From NCBI GenBank assembly GCA_964540145.1, contig CAZILS010000004.1, positions 605 to 64,604 on the forward strand: 64,000 nucleotides of DNA. Direction: 5' to 3'. Source of the stretch: an uncultured archaeon (GTDB lineage Archaea > Iainarchaeota > Iainarchaeia > Iainarchaeales > CAZILS01). Made by a program: the position numbers and the translations under genes. A model generated the notes under the pieces. It saw nothing but the letters and a program-made list of their open reading frames with translations, searched no databases and was not told the origin of the DNA. Below, one piece after another: positions 9,673-55,042 of this stretch (position 1 is the first letter of the stretch; each line of letters starts with the position of its first letter).

Positions 9673-9756
9673 GCAGGGGTTCCCGAGCGGTCAAAGGGGC
9701 TAGGTTTAGGGCCTAGTGGTTTAGTGCCTTCGGCGGTTCGAATCCGCCCCCCTGCA
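9673..9756 (+). tRNA. tRNA-Leu (anticodon UAG), type II with long variable arm
   Basis: Acceptor GCAGGGG/CCCCTGC+A, anticodon stem CTAGG/CCTAG, loop TTTAGGG, T-arm GGCGG-TTCGAAT-CCGCC. Confidence 0.8.
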
Positions 9757-9820
9757 CAACTTTTTTCCAAAAAGTTGACAAAAATCAGGAGTTGACAAAA
9801 ATCAGGGTGCGAGCCCCATC
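9739..9820 (+). repeat. 82-bp direct repeat copy 1 (tRNA-Leu 3' end + hairpin CAACTTTTTTCCAAAAAGTTG + 2x GTTGACAAAAATCAGG)
   Basis: Near-identical to 9887..9968, with 2 mismatches. Confidence 0.85.
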
Positions 9821-9886
9821 AAGGCGAGCTCGGTCTATACGGAGCAGAGCGAAGTATAGACCACGTACCAGGCGGACGTGTCGCCT

Positions 9887-9968
9887 TTCGAATCCGCCCC
9901 CCTGCACAACTTTTTTCCAAAAAGTTGACAAAAATCAGGAGTTGGCAAAAATCAGGTTGCGAGCCTAA
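9887..9968 (+). repeat. 82-bp direct repeat copy 2 (orphan tRNA-Leu 3'-terminal 21 nt + trailer)
   Basis: No matching 5' acceptor strand upstream. It is preceded by a perfect 9-bp hairpin GGTCTATAC...GTATAGACC (9835..9869). Confidence 0.85.
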
Positions 9969-10106: not shown

Positions 10107-11351
10107 GTGCTTTGGTTGGCGATATTTGAGGATGCGATAATACTTCTCGTGCTGCTGTTCTTTTCAGGAGTATTTTCGGGAATGGAAACAGCATTGGTTT
10201 CACTTAGCAAATACCGGATTAAGATATTGCTTAAGAAAGGGGCCAGGGGCGCCGGAAGCCTCGAAAAACTGAAGAAGAAGCCCCAGCGGATGATAACAAC
10301 AATCCTGATAGGGAACAACCTTGTCAATATAGGGGCAGCCTCTTTCGCAACTGTTGTCGCAATTCAGCTGTTTGGCGACGGCGCAATAGGGGTTGCGACA
10401 GGAATAATGACATTGCTTGTCCTCATATTCGGTGAGATAACCCCGAAGACACTTGCGTTGAGGCATGCGGAAGGGATTTCCCTGGCTGTGGCAGGTCCGC
10501 TTCTCTGGCTTTCATACATCCTCGGGCCGGTTATATTTGTCCTCGAGAAAATAACAAAGCTTATCGTAATGGTTTTCGGGGTGAGCTCGATAGAGAAGGG
10601 CCTCACTGAAGACGAGGTTAAGGCAATGGTTTCGATGGGCGCCGAGGAGGGCGCGATTAACCGGGCCGAAAGGGACATAATCCACAGGGTTTTCCGGTTC
10701 AATGACATTCCGGTTGAGGATGTGATGACTTCCCGCACTGAAATGGTTGCCGTGCCGCACAACTCAAACGTTTCCGATATCCTTAAGGTCTTTGAAAAAT
10801 CCCCCTTCTCAAGGATACCTGTCTACCGGGAAAGCGAAGACAACATCGTGGGGATTTTCTATGTCAAGGATGCCCTTCTAAGGATGTCGAAAGGGAAGGG
10901 CGACCTCAAGGTGGAGAAGATAATGAGGACGGCTTATTTCATCCCCCCGACAAAGACCCTTGAAAAACTCCTTGGGGAGTTCAGGCATAAGCACATCCAC
11001 ATTGCGATTGTTGCAGGGGAGTATGGGGAAGTCCTTGGCCTGGTGACAATAGAGGATTTGCTTGAGGAACTTGTCGGGGATATTGTGGATGAGCTTGAGG
11101 CGGAACCTAAAATACAGAGGCTCAATGAAAAAACAATCAGGGTTCCGGGCAATATGGAACTTGAATTGATTAACAAGGAATTGGGAACAAAACTCTCCTC
11201 CGATGAGTTTGACACAATCGCGGGCCTGATTATGGCGAAGCTTGACCGGGTTCCTGAAAGCGGCGAGGCCATCATCCTCGAAAAGATACGAATCGAGACC
11301 GAGAAGGTCGAGGGCGCAAAGATATCCTCCGTCAAGATAGTGAAACTATAG
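10107..11351 (+). CDS. CNNM/CorC-HlyC family protein (DUF21 TM domain + CBS pair + CorC_HlyC domain), putative Mg/Co transporter
   Basis: 414 aa with 4 N-terminal TM helices, a CBS pair and a C-terminal transporter-associated domain. Confidence 0.8.
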   Translation: MLWLAIFEDAIILLVLLFFSGVFSGMETALVSLSKYRIKILLKKGARGAGSLEKLKKKPQRMITTILIGNNLVNIGAASFATVVAIQLFGDGAIGVATGIMTLLVLIFGEITPKTLALRHAEGISLAVAGPLLWLSYILGPVIFVLEKITKLIVMVFGVSSIEKGLTEDEVKAMVSMGAEEGAINRAERDIIHRVFRFNDIPVEDVMTSRTEMVAVPHNSNVSDILKVFEKSPFSRIPVYRESEDNIVGIFYVKDALLRMSKGKGDLKVEKIMRTAYFIPPTKTLEKLLGEFRHKHIHIAIVAGEYGEVLGLVTIEDLLEELVGDIVDELEAEPKIQRLNEKTIRVPGNMELELINKELGTKLSSDEFDTIAGLIMAKLDRVPESGEAIILEKIRIETEKVEGAKISSVKIVKL

Positions 11352-11387
11352 TTTTATTTAAAAGATTTAACCACCCCCTTTCATATT

Positions 11388-11576
11388 ATGGAGTGCAAAA
11401 AAGAGGAGAACGCAAGGGGGTGCAACTGTACCTATCCCTGCGGCAGGAAGGGCATTTGCTGCGAGTGCGTGGCCTACCACCGCAAAAGGGGGGAGCTTCC
11501 TGCCTGTTACTTCGATTCGAAGACCGAGGCTACGTACGACCGGAGCTTCGAGGCCTACCTTAACTCCGGCAAATAA
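11388..11576 (+). CDS. Small cysteine-rich protein (7 Cys in 62 aa)
   Basis: [42 protein letters not shown]. No family recognised. It ends 4 nt before tRNA-Val. Confidence 0.4.
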
Positions 11577-11579
11577 TAC

Positions 11580-11651
11580 GGGCTCGTGGTCTAGTGGTAT
11601 GACGCCGCCTTCACACGGCGGAGACCGGCGGTTCAATTCCGCCCGGGCCCA
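11580..11651 (+). tRNA. tRNA-Val (anticodon CAC)
   Basis: GGGCTCG acceptor, anticodon loop TTCACAC, T-arm GGCGG-TTCAATT-CCGCC, CGGGCCC+A 3' end. Confidence 0.85.
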
Positions 11652-11675
11652 TATTTTCGCAGAGGGGACTTTGCA

Positions 11676-13178
11676 TTGCCAGATAGGCAACGGTTTTTAA
11701 CCTCCCTCCCCCATATTTCTTTTATGGTTTCAACCCGCACAAAGACGCTGATAGCCATACTTCTGATAGCTGTGTCCCTTAGGATAGGGCCTGTATTCCT
11801 CTTTGACGGAATGCCAATAGGATATGACAATCCCTACCATGTTAGGATGTCGGAGATAATTCAGGACAGTGGTGCTGTCCCTGGCCAAGACCCTATTTTG
11901 GGGGGAAGGCCCTACACCTACCCCGCCTTTTACCACATACTCCTCGCTTCCCTTTCAATTGTTTCAGGACTGCCAGTACAAACACTAATCCCTTTTCTCC
12001 TCCCATTTATTTCATTCCTTGTTGTTCCCGCAATCTATATTTTTGCAAGGCAATTTTCCGGCGAGACGTGGGCGTTAGTTGTTGCGCTTATGGCGGCATG
12101 CGCCTCGGCTTTGACAATGGCATCTTACAACTCCCCTGAAAACGCGGCTTTCCTTCTCCTCCCCCTGTCAATAATGCTCCTTGCGAGAGGGAGGCTGTTC
12201 CTCGGGAGCCTTCTCTTTTCGCTTTGCCTTTTCTGGAACTATTTTGCGTTCCTTATTTCATTGCCGGCAATGCTGCTGGCATTCGCATGGAGAAGGGAGG
12301 TTCTCCCTAATTTCCTGTTCGCACTCCTGGCTTCCGCCTTAGTCTGGCTGCTTTCATACGGCCCCGATGCCCTGCTGTGGTTCAGCGTAAGCTCGGGAAC
12401 CTCCTTCGTTGCGAATAACCTCAAGGATGTGATGCTTTCGCTTGTCCTTGACTCGGGCCTCATCCTTCTGGTTTTCCTTGCCTATGCCGCGAAGAAACTA
12501 ACAACCCCTGCTGCAAAATACTGGTATCTCTATGCGCTTACCTCCGGCATTGCCCTGGTAAGCTATCTTATAACTCCGGTAATGCGGAGCTGGGAGCAGC
12601 CAAAATTCCTCTCACTTGGCATTGCCTGCCTCACAGCATCGATTGTCGCGGGCAAGTATTTCAAGAAATTCGTTTACGCAGTGATAATAATTTTCTTTTT
12701 CGCCTCTTTGCTAAGCGCGTTCCAGATTGCCTACCCAAAAACAAATTCATTGGACCTGCACGCAATCTCCTGGCTTGAATCAAAAAATCCCGAAGGAAAC
12801 ATTCTTGCAGACCCCACCCTGTCCGAGGAGATAGCAAACCGCACCTCCCTCGCCCCGCAGATAATGACAGCATTGCAGTTTGAAACCCTCACCGAAAATA
12901 ATTTTGTCGAATCCTCCTTGAAGTACCTTGGCAACCAGCCTTTGGAAGATGAGCAGGCTTACGTGAGGGAAAGCGGCCTGCAGTACATCCTCCTGAACTT
13001 TGAGGACGAGAAAGTAAGGGGCACTTCCCACCTTGATGAAAAGCCCTACCTTAACAAGGTCTATTCCCTGAACTATTACCAGCCCTGCCCTTTCGGCCTG
13101 CTGCCGGTAACGCAGGGATTTGCTTGCGGCAATCTTGAAACAAAGATACTCAAGGCGAAAACAGAATTCCTTAATTAA
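11676..13178 (+). CDS. Polytopic membrane protein, possible GT-C-type glycosyltransferase (PMT/ArnT-like)
   Basis: 500 aa with about 12 TM helices and an extracytoplasmic C-terminal domain. The start may be the internal ATG at about 11724. Function is inferred only from topology and weak similarity. Confidence 0.55.
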   Translation: MPDRQRFLTSLPHISFMVSTRTKTLIAILLIAVSLRIGPVFLFDGMPIGYDNPYHVRMSEIIQDSGAVPGQDPILGGRPYTYPAFYHILLASLSIVSGLPVQTLIPFLLPFISFLVVPAIYIFARQFSGETWALVVALMAACASALTMASYNSPENAAFLLLPLSIMLLARGRLFLGSLLFSLCLFWNYFAFLISLPAMLLAFAWRREVLPNFLFALLASALVWLLSYGPDALLWFSVSSGTSFVANNLKDVMLSLVLDSGLILLVFLAYAAKKLTTPAAKYWYLYALTSGIALVSYLITPVMRSWEQPKFLSLGIACLTASIVAGKYFKKFVYAVIIIFFFASLLSAFQIAYPKTNSLDLHAISWLESKNPEGNILADPTLSEEIANRTSLAPQIMTALQFETLTENNFVESSLKYLGNQPLEDEQAYVRESGLQYILLNFEDEKVRGTSHLDEKPYLNKVYSLNYYQPCPFGLLPVTQGFACGNLETKILKAKTEFLN

Positions 13179-37967: not shown

Positions 37968-38390
37968 CTAGGAAACATCCCTCATCCTTTCCCAGTCGCC
38001 CTTACCCAGACTTCCGTCAGCATACTGCTTCGCTATTTCCCATCCAACATAAAGCCTGTACTTTCCGCTCTGCAGGAGAATTTCTGATTTTTCCTCCCCT
38101 TTCTTTTCCAAAGTTCCAACAACCGCCTTCAGCAGGCTGACAGCAGCATTAAACTCCTCAGAGTCCCCGCCTTCAACCTCATACTCGACGGTAATAGTTG
38201 CCTCCCCAATCTCAACCCTGCCAAGTTCCATGCCTGCGCTTTCCGCAATAAGTTCCTCGAATGAAGGCTCTGTAACAACTGCGTTTGCGTCATCAATCAC
38301 AGAAGTTTCTCCCCCGGCACAGCCTTCGCAAACACAACCCGCCAGCAGCAGGATTGCGAGTATTGCCGGCGCAAAAACAAAATTTTTCAT
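37968..38390 (-). CDS. Lipoprotein (hypothetical)
   Basis: The start is preferred at the ATG at 38390 (MKNFVFAPAILAILLLAGCVCEGC), which gives a signal peptide + lipobox. The longer ORF to 38594 runs into a repeat region. Confidence 0.55.
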   Translation of the reverse strand: MKNFVFAPAILAILLLAGCVCEGCAGGETSVIDDANAVVTEPSFEELIAESAGMELGRVEIGEATITVEYEVEGGDSEEFNAAVSLLKAVVGTLEKKGEEKSEILLQSGKYRLYVGWEIAKQYADGSLGKGDWERMRDVS

Positions 38391-38503
38391 GCTAAGAATT
38401 AGGAGGAAATTATATTTAAGTTTAGCACCTGTTTGCGAGTCCTTTTGGGACGAGCCAATCCCATACGCAGTATGGGATGCACTTATCGCGGGCATTGCGA
38501 TTG

Positions 38504-38717
38504 CCCTCAGTCCGCCCTCAAGCCGGTTTCGTCCGGCTGCACCGAGATATGTGTCCCACTTCATTTCATTCAGTGGGACGGTAATATTCCGCAATCAAAA
38601 GTACCCTCAGTCCGCCCTCAAGCCGGTTTCGTCCGGCTGCACCGAGATATGTGTCCCACTTCATTTCATTCAGTGGGACGGTAATATTCCGCAATCAAAA
38701 GTACCCTCAGTCCGCCC
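38504..38717. repeat. 100-bp tandem repeat, 2.14 copies, each unit containing two hairpins
   Basis: 38504..38603 is identical to 38604..38703, followed by a partial third unit. Hairpins AGCCGG-TTTCGT-CCGGCT and GTCCCACT-TCATTTCATTC-AGTGGGAC. Confidence 0.9.
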
Positions 38718-38774
38718 ATCTGTCGTCATCGGGGTGAATAGCCCCTCGGTTCATCGTCAGGTCATCATCGGGCA
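38717..38774 (+). repeat. 58-bp perfect direct repeat, left copy, flanking the AbiE-like cassette
   Basis: CATCTGTCGTCATCGGGGTGAATAGCCCCTCGGTTCATCGTCAGGTCATCATCGGGCA, identical to 40450..40507. Confidence 0.9.
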
Positions 38775-38908
38775 CACCTATAGATGACGTAACAAAATAT
38801 ATGTATTGTGTAACTAAGAAGTGTCAGGAATAGCCGGCTTGCATTTATAAATAAGCCAAATTAGGCATATATGCCTACTATTTATAAATACTTTGACTTA
38901 GTCATATA

Positions 38909-39595
38909 TTGGTAGTCTTAATGGCCAGAACCAAAAAAAAGCGCATGTTTGCCCTTTTGCTTGACCCTGCATATAAACCAACCAGCAAATATGCCCTTGC
39001 AAAAGAAGCAGGCTGCGATTCCTCCTGGGCAATAAAACTGATAAAACAGCTTGAAAACAAGGGCATTGTAAAAAATCTTGTTGTGGAGGACGCCAAAGGC
39101 CTGTTCCGGTTATTCCACAAGTTCCACCCCAAAAAAACAACTTCCAGGAGTTATTCCATCTACTCGTTTGGCGATGTGGACAAACTGATTGGCTTATTCA
39201 AAAAATCCAACAAAGAATACGCCTTTACTACTTATATGGCGGAGAACCTCGTGCAAAAGCATTTGTTCTGCCACCGGGTTGAGGCTTACATAAAGAAAGA
39301 CGATTTGGACGAATGGCACAAGCAGTTAACTGCGATAGGAACTTACGGCGGCGGCAACGTAAGGATTATTGTTTCTTCCAATGACGAGCTTTTCAATAAG
39401 AAAAGGATATCTGACACAGTAGTTGGCCGGAAATTTTTTAGTGCGAAGAAGCCCGAACGCAAAAAAGAAAGCGAAGGCCCGTGGGTAGTTAATATCCCTC
39501 AATTGATTTCTGATTTGTATGCCGAGAGCGGGCCTGCTGCCGAAGCTGCCGACCTGCTTCTGGAAAAACTCGTGAAATCATTGAAGGAGAGATAG
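38909..39595 (+). CDS. AbiEi-like winged-HTH protein (putative type IV antitoxin/transcriptional regulator)
   Basis: N-terminal wHTH (SKYALAKEAGCDSSWAIKLIKQLENKGIV); 228 aa; translationally coupled to a DUF1814-type nucleotidyltransferase. Confidence 0.5.
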   Translation: MVVLMARTKKKRMFALLLDPAYKPTSKYALAKEAGCDSSWAIKLIKQLENKGIVKNLVVEDAKGLFRLFHKFHPKKTTSRSYSIYSFGDVDKLIGLFKKSNKEYAFTTYMAENLVQKHLFCHRVEAYIKKDDLDEWHKQLTAIGTYGGGNVRIIVSSNDELFNKKRISDTVVGRKFFSAKKPERKKESEGPWVVNIPQLISDLYAESGPAAEAADLLLEKLVKSLKER

Positions 39596-40389
39596 TGATG
39601 TATGATGAGAGAGAAACCAAGCGGTCTTACGAGTACCTGCAAAAGGTGCTTTCTGTTTTGGAAGAGCCCATATGCCTGCTTGGTGGCTGGGCAATATTCC
39701 TGACTGTCAATAAGCCCTACAGGGCCAACGTTGGCAGGGATTATTTGGGTTCAAGGGACATTGATTTGGGATTTCATCTGGAGGAAGGAAAGAGTTTTTC
39801 GAAATCGGCTTTTGCCCATTCAATGAAAAAGCTTGAAGAAGAAGGCTTCAGGGAAGTTGGCGGTAGAATGGTAAAGGAGCTTGATTTTGAAACAGGCAAA
39901 GAACTCTCAAAAGTGGAAGCGCAAGCAAAGCCACCATTTGATATCCACAAAATGTTCGTTGACCTCATGGCGGACCACGCCCCAGAATTCGTCGATGAGA
40001 AAAACCACAAATTGCTTCTTGACGAAACGCTCCTTGAATGTGTTTTTGCAAATAGGGAAAACCGTACCGAGCTTGGAGAGTTCAACAAAAAACTCTGGCT
40101 GCCAAAACCTTGGCTTTTGCTGGCGATGAAAACCAAGTCCCTGCCCGGAAGGCAAAAAGAGGACAAGCGGAAAAAGGATATTGCCGACATTGCCGCACTC
40201 CTTCTTTTTGCCGGGCCGGAAAGTGCCCCCTTGAGAATGCTTGAAGTGTTGAGAAAAGACAAAATACTCCGAAGCTTGAAAGGAATTTCGCAGGCAGAAA
40301 TAAACGAAGCTGAATCATTGCTTGGCGTTCAGCTAAATTCTTTCAGAGCCGCACTGGCCGAAACTATCAACCAGATAGAACAAACTTAA
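39595..40389 (+). CDS. AbiEii/DUF1814-like nucleotidyltransferase (putative toxin)
   Basis: LGGWAIFL...GSRDIDLGF matches the KGGTAL...R(F)SEDIDF Pol-beta-type nucleotidyltransferase motif of AbiEii-family proteins. Confidence 0.55.
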   Translation: MMYDERETKRSYEYLQKVLSVLEEPICLLGGWAIFLTVNKPYRANVGRDYLGSRDIDLGFHLEEGKSFSKSAFAHSMKKLEEEGFREVGGRMVKELDFETGKELSKVEAQAKPPFDIHKMFVDLMADHAPEFVDEKNHKLLLDETLLECVFANRENRTELGEFNKKLWLPKPWLLLAMKTKSLPGRQKEDKRKKDIADIAALLLFAGPESAPLRMLEVLRKDKILRSLKGISQAEINEAESLLGVQLNSFRAALAETINQIEQT

Positions 40390-40449
40390 AAGGCAAAATA
40401 AAGAAAATTTTGTTATTTCAAGAATAAAACTTGTGTGGATTATCCTGTT

Positions 40450-40507
40450 CATCTGTCGTCATCGGGGTGAATAGCCCCTCGGTTCATCGTCAGGTCATCA
40501 TCGGGCA
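40450..40507 (+). repeat. 58-bp perfect direct repeat, right copy
   Basis: Identical to 38717..38774. Confidence 0.9.
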
Positions 40508-40539
40508 GCATAATTGCCCCTGCAAGGGTTTTTAATCGC

Positions 40540-40782
40540 TTGCCGGGCACCTTTATTTATGAAGGGAAAGTCCGGAACCAGGGCAGCTGCCCTGTGCCTG
40601 TCGATATGCTGCAGGAGCTCCCCTTGTTTAGGGATTTTGGAATACTTTGCGTCGACCTTTCCGGTTGTAAGGAAAGGGCTGGCGAGGCCATGGGAAGGCT
40701 GCGCACAGCGCTCTCCGGAAAAACCCCCGAAAAGAAGTACGCGAAGTTCACCAGGGGCCGCCGGCTCAAGGAAGCGCCTTAG
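40540..40782 (+). CDS. Hypothetical small protein (80 aa)
   Basis: ORF in a GC-rich spacer between the right repeat and the SPFH gene. Coding status is uncertain. Confidence 0.2.
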   Translation: MPGTFIYEGKVRNQGSCPVPVDMLQELPLFRDFGILCVDLSGCKERAGEAMGRLRTALSGKTPEKKYAKFTRGRRLKEAP

Positions 40783-41724: not shown

Positions 41725-43632
41725 TTAACCGCGGTTCTTCCACAAAGTTATCCCCAAAAGCAGGAGGGAGGGCGTTAGGAGTACGGCAAAGTCCGAGAGT
41801 AGCGCGGCAAGCGGCAGCCCCCTGGTCATTATCCCCGAGAGTATGTTTGTTGCCGCGGTTAACGGAAGGACTGAGGCAATTGCGTCTATCGGCTGGGGCA
41901 TGAATTCTATGGGGAAAACCATCCCGCTAAGGAACAGCATCGGTATCAGGACAAGCAGCGAGGAAAGGATTGCGGTCGCCTGTGTCTTCATTATTTCCGG
42001 GATGAACAGGCCTATGCAGATGAACGAGAATGAAACTAACGCAAGCGCAATCACAAAGTCTGTTATGTTTGGAGGTATGGGAACGCCGAAAGCAAAGAAC
42101 GCTATCACAAGGATAATCGCAGCTTCAATCAACGCAAAGACCATCTGCCCAAGCATCTTCCCCGCAAGCCAGGATGAGTGTTTGGTGGGGGAGCTCTTCA
42201 GCCTGAAATAAATCCCCTTCTCCCTTTCGATTATGACAGAGGAGCTTGCAAGCAGGAGTGTTGTAAGCAAAAGGATGAGCGCCATGCTCACAGGAACCAT
42301 TGCGCTAACTTTGGTTATCCCATAGACAGGCTCTATCCCCAGCTTGATGGGATTCACAATATACTCGGGGCTGAACTCCTTCAGCCCCTCAAGTGTATTG
42401 ATAAGGCCGGTGAAGGTGTACTTTGCGTTTTTCAACTCGCCAAGCACAAAGACTTTTGACTCATAGGTCGAGGAGACAAGCTCCTTTGACTGGCCTATCA
42501 GGGAGCCTATCTTTGTGAAATCTCCCGAAAACTCCTCTATCTCCGCCTTTGCAAGGTCCAGCCTGGAATCTGCGAGAAGGAGCTTCTCCTCCGCGGCATC
42601 GAGCTTCTGCCTTGTGTCATCTATATCCTTAATTATCTCGTTTATCCCAACGCTCGCTTCCTTCACATCCTGCAAAGAGCTGCTTAGTGTTGAGTGTATC
42701 CCGAAGAGCAGACTTTTCAGCGGCTCATCAGAAATCTCGGCAGCACCGTAAAGGCCGTTTAAATCCTCTTCGAAAGGCAGGAGGACATCATCTATCCGGC
42801 CCCTAACCCCTGCAGCATCCTGCCTATATCCTTCCAAACTTACCTTCATCCCGTTAATGTCGGAAAGTGTGGTGTTGATATCCTGCTTCGATTGCTCATA
42901 ATACTCGTCAAACAATGAAAGCTTTGAAAGTATCTGGTTTGTGTCGATTGAATGTATGCTCTCGTTAAGGTCGAGAAGCTCCCGGTTGGTTGACTCAAGC
43001 TGGCCTATAATCTCATCCGTCTTCCCCGCCTGGTCGGAGATGTTCGAGGTTATTTCATTGAGGTTCTCAAGCAGCGAGGTCAATATCTCCGATGATTTCT
43101 TGAAGCCAATGGCGTTGATTGCAGTCTGCGCCTGCGTAAGTATTGTTCCGGATGCGAACAGCGAGGAATCATCGTATAGGAACTGCGCCTTAATAAAATC
43201 TTTTTTGAATTCAGGCGCCTGCACCACAGCCCCGACAACAACCTCCCCCTTCTTTATCCCCCCAACCAAATTATCTTTTGTGCTGTACTCAACTATGTCA
43301 AGGTATTGGAAAGAGGAAAGTTCGCCCCTAAACGAGTTCGAGTCGAAGAACAGACTTTCTTCGGGAAGGACAAGGCCCATTGCAACATTCTCCAAACCGG
43401 TCTCTCCAAATGAAATGTCAATTACAGAAACCCCGCTCAGGGCAAAAGCAAGCGACGCTATTGCAAGAACAGGGTAGAGGAAGATAAGCGCAATCGCTAT
43501 GTTCTGCGAGCGTATGAGCTGTATTTCCTTTGATGAAAAGGCAATAACCTTCTCAATGCTCCTCGCAAGCGCCTTAAGGTATTCAAAAAAACTACTCATC
43601 GGGTTTCTCCCCCGTAAGCCTAAGGAACACAT
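41725..43632 (-). CDS. ABC-2 type transporter permease with large extracytoplasmic coiled-coil domain (YhgE/Pip-like)
   Basis: N-terminal TM helix, roughly 350-aa helical ectodomain and a C-terminal 5-TM ABC-2 domain. The start is probably the ATG giving MSSFFEY. Confidence 0.7.
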   Translation of the reverse strand: MCSLGLRGRNPMSSFFEYLKALARSIEKVIAFSSKEIQLIRSQNIAIALIFLYPVLAIASLAFALSGVSVIDISFGETGLENVAMGLVLPEESLFFDSNSFRGELSSFQYLDIVEYSTKDNLVGGIKKGEVVVGAVVQAPEFKKDFIKAQFLYDDSSLFASGTILTQAQTAINAIGFKKSSEILTSLLENLNEITSNISDQAGKTDEIIGQLESTNRELLDLNESIHSIDTNQILSKLSLFDEYYEQSKQDINTTLSDINGMKVSLEGYRQDAAGVRGRIDDVLLPFEEDLNGLYGAAEISDEPLKSLLFGIHSTLSSSLQDVKEASVGINEIIKDIDDTRQKLDAAEEKLLLADSRLDLAKAEIEEFSGDFTKIGSLIGQSKELVSSTYESKVFVLGELKNAKYTFTGLINTLEGLKEFSPEYIVNPIKLGIEPVYGITKVSAMVPVSMALILLLTTLLLASSSVIIEREKGIYFRLKSSPTKHSSWLAGKMLGQMVFALIEAAIILVIAFFAFGVPIPPNITDFVIALALVSFSFICIGLFIPEIMKTQATAILSSLLVLIPMLFLSGMVFPIEFMPQPIDAIASVLPLTAATNILSGIMTRGLPLAALLSDFAVLLTPSLLLLGITLWKNRG

Positions 43633-44587
43633 CTTCCAAATCCGGTTCTTTAATCAGGCTGCTCTGTATCTCGACCTTATGCTTGGCAAGCAGTGAATTT
43701 ATCTCTGCGAGACTTTTCAGGGAGGACTTTCTTGGGAAGGAAATTGTGATGTTATTTTCCCCCAAATTTATCTCCGCTCCCGGGACTTTCTTCTCAAGGA
43801 CAGGAACTATTTTCTCATTCAATCCCGCCGCCTTTATTCTGATGATTTCCTTTCCCCCGTATTTGTCAATCAGGTTTTCCGGACCGTCTGTCTCAAGCAC
43901 CTTTCCCCCGAACAGGATGGAAACCCGGTCGGAAAGGTATTGCGCCTCATCCAAATAATGGGTTGTGAGGCAGATTGTTTTCCCCTGCCCCTTAAGCTCA
44001 AGTATCTTCTCCCAGAGCAGCTTCCGTATTGCGGGATCCAAGGCAACTGTCGGTTCATCGAGAAAAATTATCTCGGGATTATGTATAAGCGAGCAGCCGA
44101 TATTGAGCAGCCTTCGATAGCCCCCGCTAAGGAACCTTGCCTTCGTGTTCCTGAACTGCCTAAGACCGAGCCAGCCGAGGAGATAATCGCTGCGTTTCCC
44201 CAAATCCGAACCAAAAACATCGAACATCTTGCCGAACAGCTCAAGGTTCTTCTCAACTGTAAAGTCCCCGAAGAAGAACTCCTCCTGCGGAACAACCCCT
44301 ATCCGCCTCTTGTCCCTGCTGCTTTTCCCGAAGAACATTACGCTTCCGTTGTTCGGCTTCTCGATGCCGATAATCAGCTTCATCAAGGTGCTCTTTCCCG
44401 CGCCGTTGGGCCCAAGGAGCGAGTGAATCTCCCCCCGTTCCAGGGAGAAGGAGACATCGAACAGCACTATCTTTTCCCCATATATCTTCGAGACAGACCT
44501 TGCCTCGACAATAGCCTCGCCCATCTTGAAATTAACGCCTAACTCCTTTATATCCTTGCCCTTCGCTTTGCGAGGTAGCCTATGCAC
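43592..44587 (-). CDS. ABC transporter ATP-binding protein
   Basis: Walker A GPNGAGKST, signature LSGGYRR, Walker B IFLDEPT. The start is probably the internal ATG (MGEAIVEAR). Confidence 0.85.
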   Translation of the reverse strand: MHRLPRKAKGKDIKELGVNFKMGEAIVEARSVSKIYGEKIVLFDVSFSLERGEIHSLLGPNGAGKSTLMKLIIGIEKPNNGSVMFFGKSSRDKRRIGVVPQEEFFFGDFTVEKNLELFGKMFDVFGSDLGKRSDYLLGWLGLRQFRNTKARFLSGGYRRLLNIGCSLIHNPEIIFLDEPTVALDPAIRKLLWEKILELKGQGKTICLTTHYLDEAQYLSDRVSILFGGKVLETDGPENLIDKYGGKEIIRIKAAGLNEKIVPVLEKKVPGAEINLGENNITISFPRKSSLKSLAEINSLLAKHKVEIQSSLIKEPDLEDVFLRLTGEKPDE

Positions 44588-46210: not shown

Positions 46211-46687
46211 TTATGCGCAGTCGCCGACAAGCGGCTTTGCGCCAATCTGCTTCAGCCCCGATATCTTCTGGGTGTCGTAGTTGATATTGACATCAAGGCT
46301 GTATGGCTGTCCCGCGCTGCATGTGAACCCCGTCAGCGCAACCACTGTCTTGGTCTCGCCTGCGGTGAACTCAAGGTTAGCCGAACCTGTATTGAAGTCC
46401 CCGCTGCTGGTGTTTATGTCCTGCAGGGTTATCTTCTTGCTGGTCATGTTCTGTATCGCGAATTCCGCATCAGTTGCTCCTGTAGAGGTAACCTTCCAGT
46501 CCACAATTGCGAACGGATATGTGCCCTCCCAGTAGGCCCTGCTCTGCGCAGCGGTTATCCCGGTGCCAACGCCCGGCATCCAGCCCATGACCCCGACAAC
46601 AACCAATGCAATAACAATGATAACCGCGAGGATTATCAGGTATTCGGTTGCGCCCTGGCCCTTTGAATTGATTTCCATCTTTAGCAT
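46211..46687 (-). CDS. Type IV pilin (major pilin candidate), copy 1 of identical tandem pair
   Basis: MLKMEINSKGQGATEYLIILAVIIVIALVVVGV; 158 aa; identical to 46831..47307. Confidence 0.8.
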   Translation of the reverse strand: MLKMEINSKGQGATEYLIILAVIIVIALVVVGVMGWMPGVGTGITAAQSRAYWEGTYPFAIVDWKVTSTGATDAEFAIQNMTSKKITLQDINTSSGDFNTGSANLEFTAGETKTVVALTGFTCSAGQPYSLDVNINYDTQKISGLKQIGAKPLVGDCA

Positions 46688-46830: not shown

Positions 46831-47307
46831 TTATGCGCAGTCGCCGACAAGCGGCTTTGCGCCAATCTGCTTCAGCCCCGATATCTTCTGGGTGTCGTAG
46901 TTGATATTGACATCAAGGCTGTATGGCTGTCCCGCGCTGCATGTGAACCCCGTCAGCGCAACCACTGTCTTGGTCTCGCCTGCGGTGAACTCAAGGTTAG
47001 CCGAACCTGTATTGAAGTCCCCGCTGCTGGTGTTTATGTCCTGCAGGGTTATCTTCTTGCTGGTCATGTTCTGTATCGCGAATTCCGCATCAGTTGCTCC
47101 TGTAGAGGTAACCTTCCAGTCCACAATTGCGAACGGATATGTGCCCTCCCAGTAGGCCCTGCTCTGCGCAGCGGTTATCCCGGTGCCAACGCCCGGCATC
47201 CAGCCCATGACCCCGACAACAACCAATGCAATAACAATGATAACCGCGAGGATTATCAGGTATTCGGTTGCGCCCTGGCCCTTTGAATTGATTTCCATCT
47301 TTAGCAT
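46831..47307 (-). CDS. Type IV pilin (major pilin candidate), copy 2
   Basis: Protein identical to copy 1. Confidence 0.8.
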   Translation of the reverse strand: MLKMEINSKGQGATEYLIILAVIIVIALVVVGVMGWMPGVGTGITAAQSRAYWEGTYPFAIVDWKVTSTGATDAEFAIQNMTSKKITLQDINTSSGDFNTGSANLEFTAGETKTVVALTGFTCSAGQPYSLDVNINYDTQKISGLKQIGAKPLVGDCA

Positions 47308-52579: not shown

Positions 52580-53082
52580 TCGCTCACCCCCACCCTCACC
52601 ACAACGCTGCTGCCGTTGTAGTACGCAGGTCTTGCGACAGTAACGACCGTTGCGTTCCCGTCCCCGTCGGTGCCGAACTTCGCAGCCTGCTGCCCCCCCT
52701 GAAGGTAATTTATCGTGATTCCCACATTGTATCTCCCCGCCCCGAAAAGCCCCTTTGCGTCGGAATAGCTTGAATTCAGGTCCACGAGCCTCGCCAGCTT
52801 GTCCCCGTCGATAACCGACCTTTCCTGTACAAGCCCTATCGAGTTGATGTCGTCGATGCTCGCCAGGTATTCCCAGTTGGCCGGGGACCCTTTACTGTAG
52901 AGCAGCTGGTTGCTTGCCCTAAGTGCCGCTTCTTTCATATCATAGTCCTTCTCTGCATTGTTGAGGCTGTTCTGGAGCGCAGTCGCATAGACTATGCTCA
53001 CCGTGACAAGCCCGACAAATACCGTGAAGGCGACGACCGCATCGGTGCTGAACATTTGCCCCTTACTATTCAACGCCCTCAA
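52576..53082 (-). CDS. Minor pilin-like protein (SKGQ|MFSTDAVVAF)
   Basis: Class III signal with Q+1. Confidence 0.6.
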   Translation of the reverse strand: MRALNSKGQMFSTDAVVAFTVFVGLVTVSIVYATALQNSLNNAEKDYDMKEAALRASNQLLYSKGSPANWEYLASIDDINSIGLVQERSVIDGDKLARLVDLNSSYSDAKGLFGAGRYNVGITINYLQGGQQAAKFGTDGDGNATVVTVARPAYYNGSSVVVRVGVSE

Positions 53083-55042
53083 CCCTTACTTTTTCCCCTA
53101 AATTGGTGGCCTTGAAAATCCTCGGGTTTTCGAGGAGTTCCCATATGCACCCCCCCTGTAACTGGCACTCCGCCTGGAGTATGAGCCCTATGCAGCTTGT
53201 GCAGCTCCCCTGGCAGTCGGGCGGTGTCCATGAACAACCGTCCTGCCCCCCGCAACTCCCCTCGGTGCCGAAGGTCCCGCATCCTGTACAGCCCCCGTAA
53301 CAGTCCGCCAAGTCCCAAGAACATCCGTCCTGCCCCTCGCACGTGCCCTGTGCACCATATGTATCGCATGCGGTACAGCCCCCGTAACAGTCCGCCAAGT
53401 CCCAAGAACATCCGTCCTGCCCCTCGCACGTGCCTTGGCTACCGTAGCTTGTGCATCCTGTGCATGTGCCGTTGCAGTCCTCATCCCAGCCACACCCGTC
53501 CTGCCCCTCGCACGTGCCTTGGCTTCCGTAGGTGCTGCAGGCAGTGGGCGAGCCTGCACACTCATCAGGGTTCCACAGGCACCCGTCCTGCCCCTCACAC
53601 GTGCCCTGTGCACCATATGTATCGCATGCGGTACAGCCCCCGTAACAGTCCGCCAAGTCCCAAGAACATCCGTCCTGCCCCTCACACGTGCCCTGTGCAC
53701 CATATGTATCGCATGCGGTACAGCCCCCGTAACAGTCCGCCAAGTCCCAAGAACATCCGTCCTGCCCCTCGCACGTGCCCTGTGCACCATATGTATCACA
53801 GCCTGTTTCCGTGCCGTAGCAGTTCTCGGGATCCCAGGTGCATCCCGAGTCCTCGCATTCCCCCTGCCCCCCGTCATGTGCCGAGCAGGCGTGCGGTTCC
53901 CCCGAACACCACCATATAATGAACCATGTTGCTGTACAGCCGTGCGCTTCGCATGTTGCCTGGTCGCCTATATATGTTGTGCAGGGGTCATGCGTGCCCT
54001 CGCAGTTCGCAAGGTCCCAAGAACACTCGTCCTGCCCCTCGCAGTTCCCCTGTGCACCATATGTATCACAGGTTGTTGCCGTGCCCTCGCAGTTCGCAAG
54101 GTCCCAAGAACACTCGTCCTGCCCCTCGCACGTGCCTTGCGCACCATATGTATCGCATGCGGTACAGCTCCCATAGCAGTCCTCCTCATCCCATGCACAC
54201 CCCCCCTGCCCCTCGCAGTTCCCCTGCGCACCGTAAGTCGTGCAGTCCGTGCATGCTCCTGCGCAGTCCTCCTCATCCCATGCACACCCCCCCTGCCCCT
54301 CGCAGTTAGGCTGGCTTGCGTAGTTGTTGCAGTCGTTACAGCTCCCATAGCAGTCCTCCTCATCCCATGCACACCCCCCCTGCCCCTCGCAGTTCCCCTG
54401 CGCACCGTAAGTCGTGCAGTCCGTGCATGCTCCTGCGCAGTCCTCCTCATCCCATGCACACCCCCCCTGCCCCTCGCAGTTAGGCTGGCTTGCGTAGTTG
54501 TTGCAGTCGTTACAGCTCCCATAGCAGTCCTCCTCATCCCATGCACACCCCCCCTGCCCCTCGCACGTGCCCTGCGCACCGTAGGCATCACAGGCGGTAC
54601 AGCTACCTGCGCACCCGCCTCCTCCCCATAAACATCCCGACTGGGCATTGCAGTCGATTTCCGTGCCGAATGAGCCGCATTCTGTGCAGCTCCCTTGGCA
54701 GGTCGTGCTGTCGATGAGCTCGGCGTTCTTTGTCAGCAACGGCATGTCAAGGAAATTGCCCCTCCATGAAACTTCGACAGTATTGTCGGCTATATCGACG
54801 TTATAGTCCTCGCCGAGCCTCCCGACATTTATGGTTGCCTCCGCCCCCGTCCCTCCCAGCCAGACATTGTTTATCCCCCTTGCAACCTCTGACGCGATTT
54901 CCTTCGCCTCCAGGACCTCTCTCGCATAGATATAACCTTCCGTCCTCTCCCCGTATGTGAAGACCGCGAACGACAGCACTATGAAAAGCGCCACCACCAC
55001 AACAATGAACTCCATGCTCGCCTGCCCTTTTTTCCCACCCAT
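53066..55042 (-). CDS. Pilin-like protein with about 17 tandem cysteine-rich repeats (consensus roughly C-T-A-C-D-T-Y-G-A-Q-G-T-C-E-G-Q-D-G-C-S-W-D-L-A-D-C-Y-G-G)
   Basis: Class III signal peptide MGGKKGQ|ASMEFIVVVVALF, then a roughly 550-aa repeat array with 5 Cys per roughly 29 aa (about 90 Cys in total). The underlying DNA is near-identical 87/174-bp repeats, and that DNA repetition is why both strands throw up many ORFs here. Confidence 0.8.
   Translation of the reverse strand: MGGKKGQASMEFIVVVVALFIVLSFAVFTYGERTEGYIYAREVLEAKEIASEVARGINNVWLGGTGAEATINVGRLGEDYNVDIADNTVEVSWRGNFLDMPLLTKNAELIDSTTCQGSCTECGSFGTEIDCNAQSGCLWGGGGCAGSCTACDAYGAQGTCEGQGGCAWDEEDCYGSCNDCNNYASQPNCEGQGGCAWDEEDCAGACTDCTTYGAQGNCEGQGGCAWDEEDCYGSCNDCNNYASQPNCEGQGGCAWDEEDCAGACTDCTTYGAQGNCEGQGGCAWDEEDCYGSCTACDTYGAQGTCEGQDECSWDLANCEGTATTCDTYGAQGNCEGQDECSWDLANCEGTHDPCTTYIGDQATCEAHGCTATWFIIWWCSGEPHACSAHDGGQGECEDSGCTWDPENCYGTETGCDTYGAQGTCEGQDGCSWDLADCYGGCTACDTYGAQGTCEGQDGCSWDLADCYGGCTACDTYGAQGTCEGQDGCLWNPDECAGSPTACSTYGSQGTCEGQDGCGWDEDCNGTCTGCTSYGSQGTCEGQDGCSWDLADCYGGCTACDTYGAQGTCEGQDGCSWDLADCYGGCTGCGTFGTEGSCGGQDGCSWTPPDCQGSCTSCIGLILQAECQLQGGCIWELLENPRIFKATNLGEKVRVEGVE

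Follow-up and report, generated by a model that had tools for sequence, protein, structure and literature searches.

A toxin-antitoxin-type cassette between copies of a putative small RNA gene of the C/D box class in an uncultured Iainarchaeota genome

The repeats and the small RNA gene

The stretch of DNA analysed here (64,000 nucleotides (nt) of contig CAZILS010000004.1, from the uncultured Iainarchaeota assembly GCA_964540145.1; hereafter the window) contains a two-gene cassette enclosed by two copies of a 58-nt sequence (58-mer), at 38717-38774 and 40450-40507, on the identical strand and with 0 mismatches. An earlier note on this DNA had placed identical 58-mers at 38717 and 40450, which a search of the window confirmed (dinucleotide shuffles give an expectation of 0 matches), and had counted only two genes between them, in agreement with the two credible open reading frames (ORFs) called here: ORF1 (38921-39595, plus strand, 224 amino acids (aa)) and ORF2 (39598-40389, plus strand, 263 aa). 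Its 2.14 copies of a 100-bp unit were likewise recovered by Tandem Repeats Finder as a 100-bp period at 38504-38717 (2.1 copies, 100% matches). The toxin-antitoxin interpretation that it built on these features is half right, and the most interesting feature is on the other strand, where the 58-mer is the 5' 58 nt of a C/D box small RNA (sRNA) gene.

The complete sRNA gene is read on the minus strand from 38775 to 38704 and comprises a C box (ATGATGA, 38762-38768), a 12-nt D' guide (CCTGACGATGAA, 38750-38761), a D' box (CCGA, 38746-38749), a 16-nt internal hairpin (38730-38745), a C' box (ATGACGA, 38723-38729), a 12-nt D guide (CAGATGGGCGGA, 38711-38722) and a D box (CTGA, 38707-38710), i.e., the C/D box arrangement ATGATGA-12-CCGA-16-ATGACGA-12-CTGA. 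As RNA it reads GUGCCCG, AUGAUGA (C), CCUGACGAUGAA (12 nt), CCGA (D'), GGGGCUAUUCACCCCG, AUGACGA (C'), CAGAUGGGCGGA (12 nt), CUGA (D) and GGGUAC, and folding closes it by a 6-bp terminal stem (GUGCCC/GGGUAC). The left 58-mer (38717-38774, minus strand) is the 5' part of this intact gene and has the layout of a right-hand attachment site (attR), with cassette DNA upstream and the native 3' end of the sRNA downstream; the copy runs on into the 3' half of the D guide and the D box. The right 58-mer (40450-40507, minus strand) is an sRNA cut short, which keeps its own upstream region, C box, D' guide, D' box, hairpin, C' box and CAGATG, breaks at ...CAGATG^ and continues into cassette DNA; without a D box, it has the layout of a left-hand attachment site (attL).

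Homologues of the sRNA were retrieved with a pattern of the C' box, D guide and D box (21 fixed bases), which hit 20 genome loci and 35 metagenome loci (55 altogether; L-numbers below denote individual loci). All were archaeal or sRNA-shaped except L011, from Prevotella, and L041, a near-identical contig from a metagenome, both of which lack the other sRNA boxes. The homologues are spread over DPANN and euryarchaeal contigs, and about 30 distinct ones could be parsed into four boxes with 12-nt spacers, variable loops and conserved guides; the D guide CAGATGGGCGG is invariant among them, and the D' guide falls into two classes, CUGACGAUGA in DPANN and AUCGACAGCGU in Thermococci, Theionarchaea, Methanomicrobia and Halobacteria. 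D-guide-like matches inside three nucleotidyltransferase genes (L002 6087, L003 3305, L018 1803), which encode the LGGWA motif, were dropped.

A covariance model (R1) built from 14 DPANN copies of the sRNA matched the window exactly twice, at the left copy (75.1 bits, E ~1e-18) and at the right copy (36.2 bits). Among 35 aligned homologues, compensatory changes are seen in each of the five base pairs of the terminal stem, and 81% of the terminal-stem cells are paired, compared with 45% after shuffling (0 of 500 shuffles reached 81%) and 32-44% in slid controls, figures that are biased towards the stem because the alignment was fitted to the structure of the model. Scanned at permissive settings, Rfam yielded for the left 58-mer (minus strand) a weak match to archaeal C/D box sRNAs (sR2, 20.2 bits against a gathering score of 42). 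Scans of IMG/VR returned no matches to the 3' pattern of the sRNA and only nine chance matches, in coding DNA, to its 5' pattern, and a literature search for the guide sequence found irrelevant primer matches only. The D guide pairs with nine contiguous nucleotides of Escherichia coli 16S ribosomal RNA (rRNA), positions 1399-1407 (CCGCCCGUC), taken as a proxy for the rRNA of the host, and is predicted by the N+5 rule on this E. coli sequence to direct 2'-O-methylation of 16S C1402, a decoding-centre position that is 2'-O-methylated in bacteria and eukaryotes.

Directly beyond the 3' end of the intact gene lie the two exact tandem 100-bp units (minus strand, 38703 to 38604 and 38603 to 38504). 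Each consists of 86 nt with two hairpins, in line with the earlier description of the unit as hairpin-rich, followed by 14 nt, GGGCGGACTGAGGG (GGGCGGACUGAGGG), that equal the last 14 nt of the sRNA and start at the same nucleotide where the 58-mer ends (G38717). One copy of the unit is found at the same position in L058, a contig of an independent Joint Genome Institute (JGI) assembly, and two diverged copies occur in the Micrarchaeota contig L018; both hairpins keep their pairing, with compensatory changes in 11 of the 22 predicted pairs (four sequences only). The 100-bp unit is a conserved module ending in a copy of the 3' end of its target, as would be expected of an arm on the attR side or of a non-autonomous miniature element; in the window, a single unit as in L058 was recently duplicated to give the exact tandem of two copies. 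Its second hairpin (GSCGG-ACGWRW-CSGSC) occurs nine times in the ~739 kb of sequence examined, eight times directly 5' of a copy of an RNA-gene 3' end (seven sRNA cores and, at window position 9871, the 3' end of a transfer RNA (tRNA) gene, tRNA-Leu).

The 3' end of the tRNA-Leu gene itself (9673-9757) and the 58 nt beyond it are present twice, as a direct repeat of 79 nt (9737-9815 and 9887-9965; 97.5% identity). Directly before the second copy lies the hairpin GGCGGACGTGTCGCC (9871-9885), the same module as in the 100-bp units, and the arrangement looks like a miniature att-type scar at a second RNA gene.

The cassette has a GC content of 43.0% (window, 49.7%). A Logan unitig of 1735 bp from SRR7048224 (L001) matches window positions 38745-40479 exactly and comprises the unique cassette and, on either side of it, 30 nt of repeat (k-1, with k = 31); because it ends 30 nt into each repeat, the raw reads, too, show the 58-mer in two contexts per side.

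The small RNA gene in related genomes

Multiple copies of the sRNA within a few kb were found at DPANN-type loci only (the window, L003, L016/L020, L017/L022/L008, L018, L024, L035, L038 and L045), the roughly 25 euryarchaeal loci having one copy each. For cargo other than that of the window, one pair of genomes provides an empty and an occupied site: the sRNA is intact in the metagenome-assembled genome (MAG) L027 and interrupted in the single-cell genome of Iainarchaeum andersonii, where the 5' flank, the C box and CCUGAC are followed by foreign DNA (L016, 98.8% identical to L027) and the 3' part of the sRNA and its 3' flank resume ~9 kb away (L020, 85% identical). The ~9-kb insert carries Fic, a TraG/HerA-like ATPase, NUDIX, an ArsR/disulfide-oxidoreductase/HMA cluster and two more copies of the sRNA.

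Unrelated cargo is flanked by sRNA copies in at least eight other genomes. In the MAG co17_196, the assembly graph (L017 to L022 to L008) places a 3.9-kb segment with an AbiE-like nucleotidyltransferase pair (84% identical to that of the window) and Fic between two sRNA copies. The Micrarchaeota contig L018 holds an array in the order orf248, sRNA, wHTH (winged helix-turn-helix) and nucleotidyltransferase genes, two 100-bp units, wHTH-Fic, an sRNA core, and again wHTH and nucleotidyltransferase genes. A ParE/YoeB-like pair and a Fic gene lie between sRNA copies in L024 (two ORFs there, of 183 and 109 aa, looked by eye like a putative PIN/RHH pair, but Pfam gave no support for PIN in the 183-aa ORF), and in L045 (1749-3719) the sole cargo between two sRNA copies is a 656-aa protein with an SEC-C motif and no other recognisable domain, whose gene is shortened to 181 aa in L035 (640-1185).

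The junctions converge. In the window, the 58-mer ends with ...CAGATG at G38717 and the 14-mer begins there; elsewhere, identity to the target starts at ATGGGCGG in the cores of L018 and L009 and at AGATGGGCG in the att site of L075, all within the same AGATG, and this convergence is the signature of a defined crossover region.

Integrases are linked to the same sRNA in related DPANN archaea. The tyrosine integrase of L033 (414 aa; PF00589, E 4e-21) begins 47 nt past the sRNA, and five further loci fetched by integrase homology alone (L073, L075, L076, L077 and L078; 59-69% identity) show the same arrangement, so that a tyrosine integrase is located ~50 nt downstream of the sRNA and co-oriented with it in 6/6 loci (in L078 the sRNA 3' core only). 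All of these recombinases belong to the ordinary phage type, and their N-terminal domain is SAM-like. In L075, the 3' end of the sRNA is repeated perfectly over 19 nt (AGATGGGCGAACTGAGGCC) 8.5 kb downstream, just before a host gene; this copy is the attR of an element containing the integrase, a Mrr-type nuclease and an ATPase. Another integrase, 39% identical, is found 1.8 kb away from the cassette homologue of L002. The tyrosine integrase of L079 (6352-9185), which shares 36% identity with the sRNA-linked family, has a 209-aa ORF and a 302-aa AbiEii (PF08843) protein directly upstream, and no sRNA or tRNA was detected at that locus. The ABC-2 permease and ABC ATPase genes beside the cassette (window 41725-44587) have homologues in L033 (5494-8147), a few kb from its integrase-linked sRNA; relative to them, the sRNA has the opposite orientation, which suggests an inversion at the site.

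The history of the cassette can be followed by comparison with L058, which holds the closest homologues of its two proteins (85% and 82% amino-acid identity). The shared sequence covers the left neighbour gene (window 37968-38392; presumably lipoprotein-like, judged by eye), the leader, one 100-bp unit, the sRNA, the whole intergenic region, the cassette and ~60 nt of right flank (40517-40569, plus strand, CCCTGCAAGGGTTTTTAA...TTTATGAAGGG). This flank runs in L058 into an ORF starting MKGK..., which by eye we take to be peptidase-U32-like, and in the window only the start of that ORF is left. L058 is thus occupied, with the same flanks, but where the window has its right 58-mer only a decayed remnant of ~22 nt is left in L058 (ATCGCCAAATCAGAATAGGGCG vs ATCGTCAGGTCATCATCGGGCA). 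The cassette and the two copies of the sRNA are therefore older than the separation of the two organisms, and the 58/58 identity in the window is recent and would stem from gene conversion or from excision and re-integration.

The two proteins of the cassette

ORF1 starts with a winged helix-turn-helix domain, as the earlier note had proposed, and its C-terminal two-thirds are predicted to adopt a nucleotidyltransferase-like fold without catalytic motifs; it is a putative antitoxin and autorepressor. The AbiEi label formerly attached to it is not supported: no AbiEi hidden Markov model (HMM) from Pfam, NCBIfam or PADLOC matched it at E<=1, and its predicted fold does not point to AbiEi. As the models suggest, both genes of the pair may be derived from nucleotidyltransferases. 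Upstream of ORF1, the region 38844-38908 (plus strand) contains two 28-nt direct repeats, each starting TTTATAAATA (38844-38871 and 38881-38908), and a 16-nt palindrome, TAGGCATATATGCCTA (38862-38877). The region is conserved upstream of the cassettes in L058, L003, L002 and L022, and we infer that it holds the ORF1 promoter (TATA boxes) and operator. ORF1 ends with TAG (39593-39595), overlapped by 1 nt by a GTG at 39595. The TGATG to which the earlier note had tied translational coupling does overlap the ATG of ORF2 at 39598, but it supplies a second in-frame stop, the stop of ORF1 itself being the upstream TAG.

ORF2 is a Pol-beta-type nucleotidyltransferase of the AbiEii/MenT kind and a putative toxin. 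Its 399 homologues are almost all from DPANN MAGs; in one of the loci with a cassette homologue (L006), a 1.9-kb direct repeat including a YcaO gene (1-1928 and 10891-12818, 91% identical) flanks the 9-kb region that includes this homologue, with no sRNA nearby. Residues G29, G30, S52, D54, D56, K193, D194 and D197 are invariant in 36 sequences, giving the GG/GS, DxD and K..D..D motifs of AbiEii, whose definitions reportedly go back to Dy and colleagues in 2014. The AlphaFold model (pLDDT 92) matched in Foldseek, as the top match, a fungal nucleotidyltransferase-like protein (5uvd, E 2e-4), and it matched MenT1 (8an4_B) with E 5.6e-3 and probability 1.0, which assigns it to the MenT fold, with TM scores of only 0.40/0.53. 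The assignment to AbiEii/DUF1814 in the earlier note is supported by the motifs, by the fold and by 16/36 homologues that match PF08843 at E<=0.01 (best 6.5e-7), although ORF2 itself is below the Pfam cut-off (14.9 bits against 22.5, E = 0.025); judged from sequence and model, it is at best an outlying, putative member of the AbiEii/MenT-like nucleotidyltransferases. Searches of PADLOC and NCBIfam with both proteins gave nothing useful, sequence-profile searches of the PDB gave marginal matches only, and a scan of IMG/VR for the nucleotidyltransferase returned no matches.

Compared with its closest homologues (313 aa), ORF2 lacks a C-terminal extension of ~50 aa, with TAA in place of a Tyr codon. 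The tail of the cassette (40390-40449, plus strand) is the decayed remnant of this extension, in which coding for KGKIKKI is still visible downstream of ORF2 (window 40381-40449), and L058 has the same short form.

Interpretation and relation to known systems

We consider it probable (about 60%) that the locus is an integrase-less toxin-antitoxin-type cassette in an integration hotspot, the hotspot being a conserved C/D box sRNA gene. The two 58-mers would be the attL- and attR-type junctions of conservative site-specific recombination, and the incoming DNA would have brought an sRNA-like arm with it, as tRNA-targeting elements bring part of a tRNA. Insertion would have preceded the split from L058, with the recent conversion or re-integration following it. 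Movement of the cassette would be possible in trans only, or through homologous recombination of one 58-mer copy with the other; use of the direct repeats as recombination sites in trans had also been thought possible in the earlier note. Excision would be expected to produce a circle with the junction CCTGTT+58-mer+CACCTATAG (at greater length, ...GGATTATCCTGTT+58-mer+CACCTATAGATG...) and an empty site GTCCGCC+58-mer+GCATAATTG (...CAGTCCGCC+58-mer+GCATAATTGCC...). The ORF2 toxin might nucleotidylate RNA (tRNA ends in the case of MenT), ORF1 would neutralise it and repress the operon via the two 28-nt repeats, and such addictive modules could persist at the site after the elements decay.

Several points weigh against this reading. 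No integrase was found in the cassette or in the 64-kb window, either among the ORF calls or by tblastn with two integrases, in agreement with the integrase part of the former claim that neither integrase nor transposase lies inside. An empty site for the cassette, which the earlier note had suggested looking for in related genomes, was not found by a synteny search (the orthologous L058 locus is occupied, and L033, L008 and L009 show partial synteny only); the present mobility of the cassette is putative, and gene conversion alone could account for the perfect 58-nt identity. An attR was seen for one integrase element only (L075), with none within the available sequence of L033, L073 and L076. 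The junctions in I. andersonii and several 5'-replaced sRNA copies break at CTGAC in the D' guide, a second breakpoint, and not at AGATG, which speaks for more than one crossover point or mechanism, and the close cassette homologues of L002 and L006 have no sRNA nearby. At its gathering threshold, Rfam reported tRNAs only in the window and 16 loci, and the sRNA did not reach it; the sRNA is a putative one, recognised by boxes, guides and covariation, with its expression predicted and its rRNA target based on E. coli rRNA and not on that of the host. Toxicity of ORF2 and antitoxicity of ORF1 are likewise putative.

Some of these points would suit a fixed chromosomal toxin-antitoxin locus without site-specific recombination, in which the right 58-mer is a local duplicate of the sRNA, its identity maintained by gene conversion, and in which slippage or unequal crossing-over at the 14-nt repeat produced the 100-bp tandem. 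The cassette of L058, at the same locus and with the same flanks, would then reflect vertical inheritance, no integrase would be expected in the window, and the single unit of L058, flanked by the 14-nt repeat, could readily undergo unequal crossing-over; in Pyrobaculum, moreover, C/D sRNAs are documented to have been duplicated and rearranged (PMC6009581). We nevertheless find such a history unlikely, as it leaves unexplained that the 58-mer ends and the 14-mer starts at one nucleotide, that this point lies in the att core of the integrase elements of relatives, that sRNA copies surround unrelated cargo in at least eight other genomes, and that the cassette has a low GC content.

It is very improbable that the locus is an artefact of assembly, i.e., a free circle of ~1.73 kb sharing the 58-mer that was threaded into the chromosomal contig, together with a mis-assembled tandem unit. 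The k=31 unitig graph (L001) fits an integrated copy and a circle plus empty site alike, and many homologues are found on contigs of 1-3 kb, but the independent JGI assembly L058 has the cassette between the same flanks, De Bruijn assemblers collapse repeats and do not invent tandem junctions, and the cassette has no replication protein. An integron-type gene cassette with the 58-mer as attC for IntI deserves hardly any credence and was rejected: small recombinase-less cassettes bounded by repeats do recall integrons, toxin-antitoxin genes are common integron cargo and integrons are reported in archaeal MAGs (bioRxiv 10.1101/2022.02.06.479319), yet neither IntI nor an attC-like inverted repeat was found (a 4-bp GGGG/CCCC hairpin is all that the 58-mer has in place of an attC-like imperfect dyad), the 58-mer looks like a functional sRNA and has conserved guides, the cassette carries promoter repeats of its own, and the associated recombinases are phage-type integrases beside the sRNA.

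The reading as an integrase-less cassette in an sRNA hotspot has a stronger form, which we offer tentatively, as possible rather than probable. The sRNA gene would be an integron-like capture platform in Iainarchaeota, Micrarchaeota and related DPANN, at which a dedicated family of tyrosine integrases recombines at AGATG^GGCGG and piles up, between copies of the sRNA, hairpin mini-units of 100 nt and small toxin, defence and resistance cassettes that often lack an integrase; the hairpin module would have switched to tRNA-Leu in the window, and the cassette would still be mobilisable. If either form is true, a C/D sRNA gene as recurrent attB (the chromosomal target) would be a new class of integrase target. 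The sRNA together with the AGATGGGCGG region would provide a simple sequence handle for mobile DNA, defence and toxin genes in DPANN genomes, which are hard to annotate, and the scheme would offer a mechanism for duplicated, composite and 5'-replaced archaeal C/D sRNAs. It would also delimit a DPANN-specific AbiEii/MenT-like branch in which the partner protein itself has a nucleotidyltransferase-like domain.

Two further features of the window lie apart from the cassette. Two tandem ORFs on the minus strand (46211-46687 and 46831-47307) code for 158-aa proteins that are 100% identical to each other and whose hydrophobic N-terminal segment is of the type found in archaeal pilins (QGATEYLIILAVII...); their identity points to the recent duplication of ~620 bp. 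Long arrays of 87-bp (and 174-bp) tandem repeats with a GC content of ~60% (53278-54584) are contained in a 658-aa ORF (53066-55042, minus strand), probably a repetitive surface protein.

Among known systems, the cassette resembles AbiE and MenAT in its two abutting genes with the wHTH gene first and the nucleotidyltransferase gene second, in its promoter direct repeats, in the GG...DxD Pol-beta motifs and C-terminal K..D..D of ORF2, in family members that match PF08843 and in a fold that matches MenT1. It differs from AbiE in that ORF2 is below the Pfam cut-off, ORF1 is not recognisable as AbiEi by HMM or fold and has a nucleotidyltransferase-like C-terminal domain, and the family is essentially confined to DPANN archaea. 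In streptococci, cis-mobilisable elements (CIMEs) are integrase-less, att-bounded segments mobilised in trans, and tandem accretion at the att sites of integrative and conjugative elements (ICEs) builds arrays by successive integrations. The locus is similar to CIMEs in being an integrase-less att-bounded segment and in forming arrays at one site, and unlike them in that it is archaeal, targets an sRNA and is only 1.7 kb in size, with mobilisation putative.

Integration into genes of structural RNAs other than tRNA has been described for bacterial phages and islands, which use the small-RNA genes ssrA and ffs (PMC12540744); they share with the present case a non-tRNA structural RNA gene as attB and differ in domain of life, RNA class and integrase family. 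The survey of C/D sRNAs in Pyrobaculum reported duplication, composite sRNAs and copies resembling miniature inverted-repeat transposable elements (PMC6009581), and the sRNAs studied here likewise occur as duplicated and 5'- or 3'-replaced copies with modular rearrangement of guides; in contrast, no integrases, att sites or protein-coding cargo between copies are described in that survey.

The closest parallel is with the archaeal elements that target tRNA genes, which also have direct repeats that stem from an RNA gene, one copy being intact and one partial, and in which, as in the related archaea, the integrase lies beside its target. The attB sites of archaeal tyrosine recombinases are tRNA genes, protein-coding genes and intergenic sites according to a 2021 review, which does not mention sRNA or snoRNA targets; elements of the pTN3 type use the 5' half of a tRNA gene, so that the intact gene ends up behind the element DNA (PMC8371274), and the window shows the same layout, with the intact copy downstream of the element DNA. 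The cassette has flanking repeats derived from its target, as expected of an RNA-gene att site, and differs from tRNA-targeting elements in having no recombinase of its own and in its target, a C/D box sRNA gene. No pertinent report of integrases linked to box sRNA genes was found in the literature searched, the coverage of which is incomplete. RNA-gene-targeting integration is itself already known; a C/D box sRNA gene as the target of an integrase is likely to be new.

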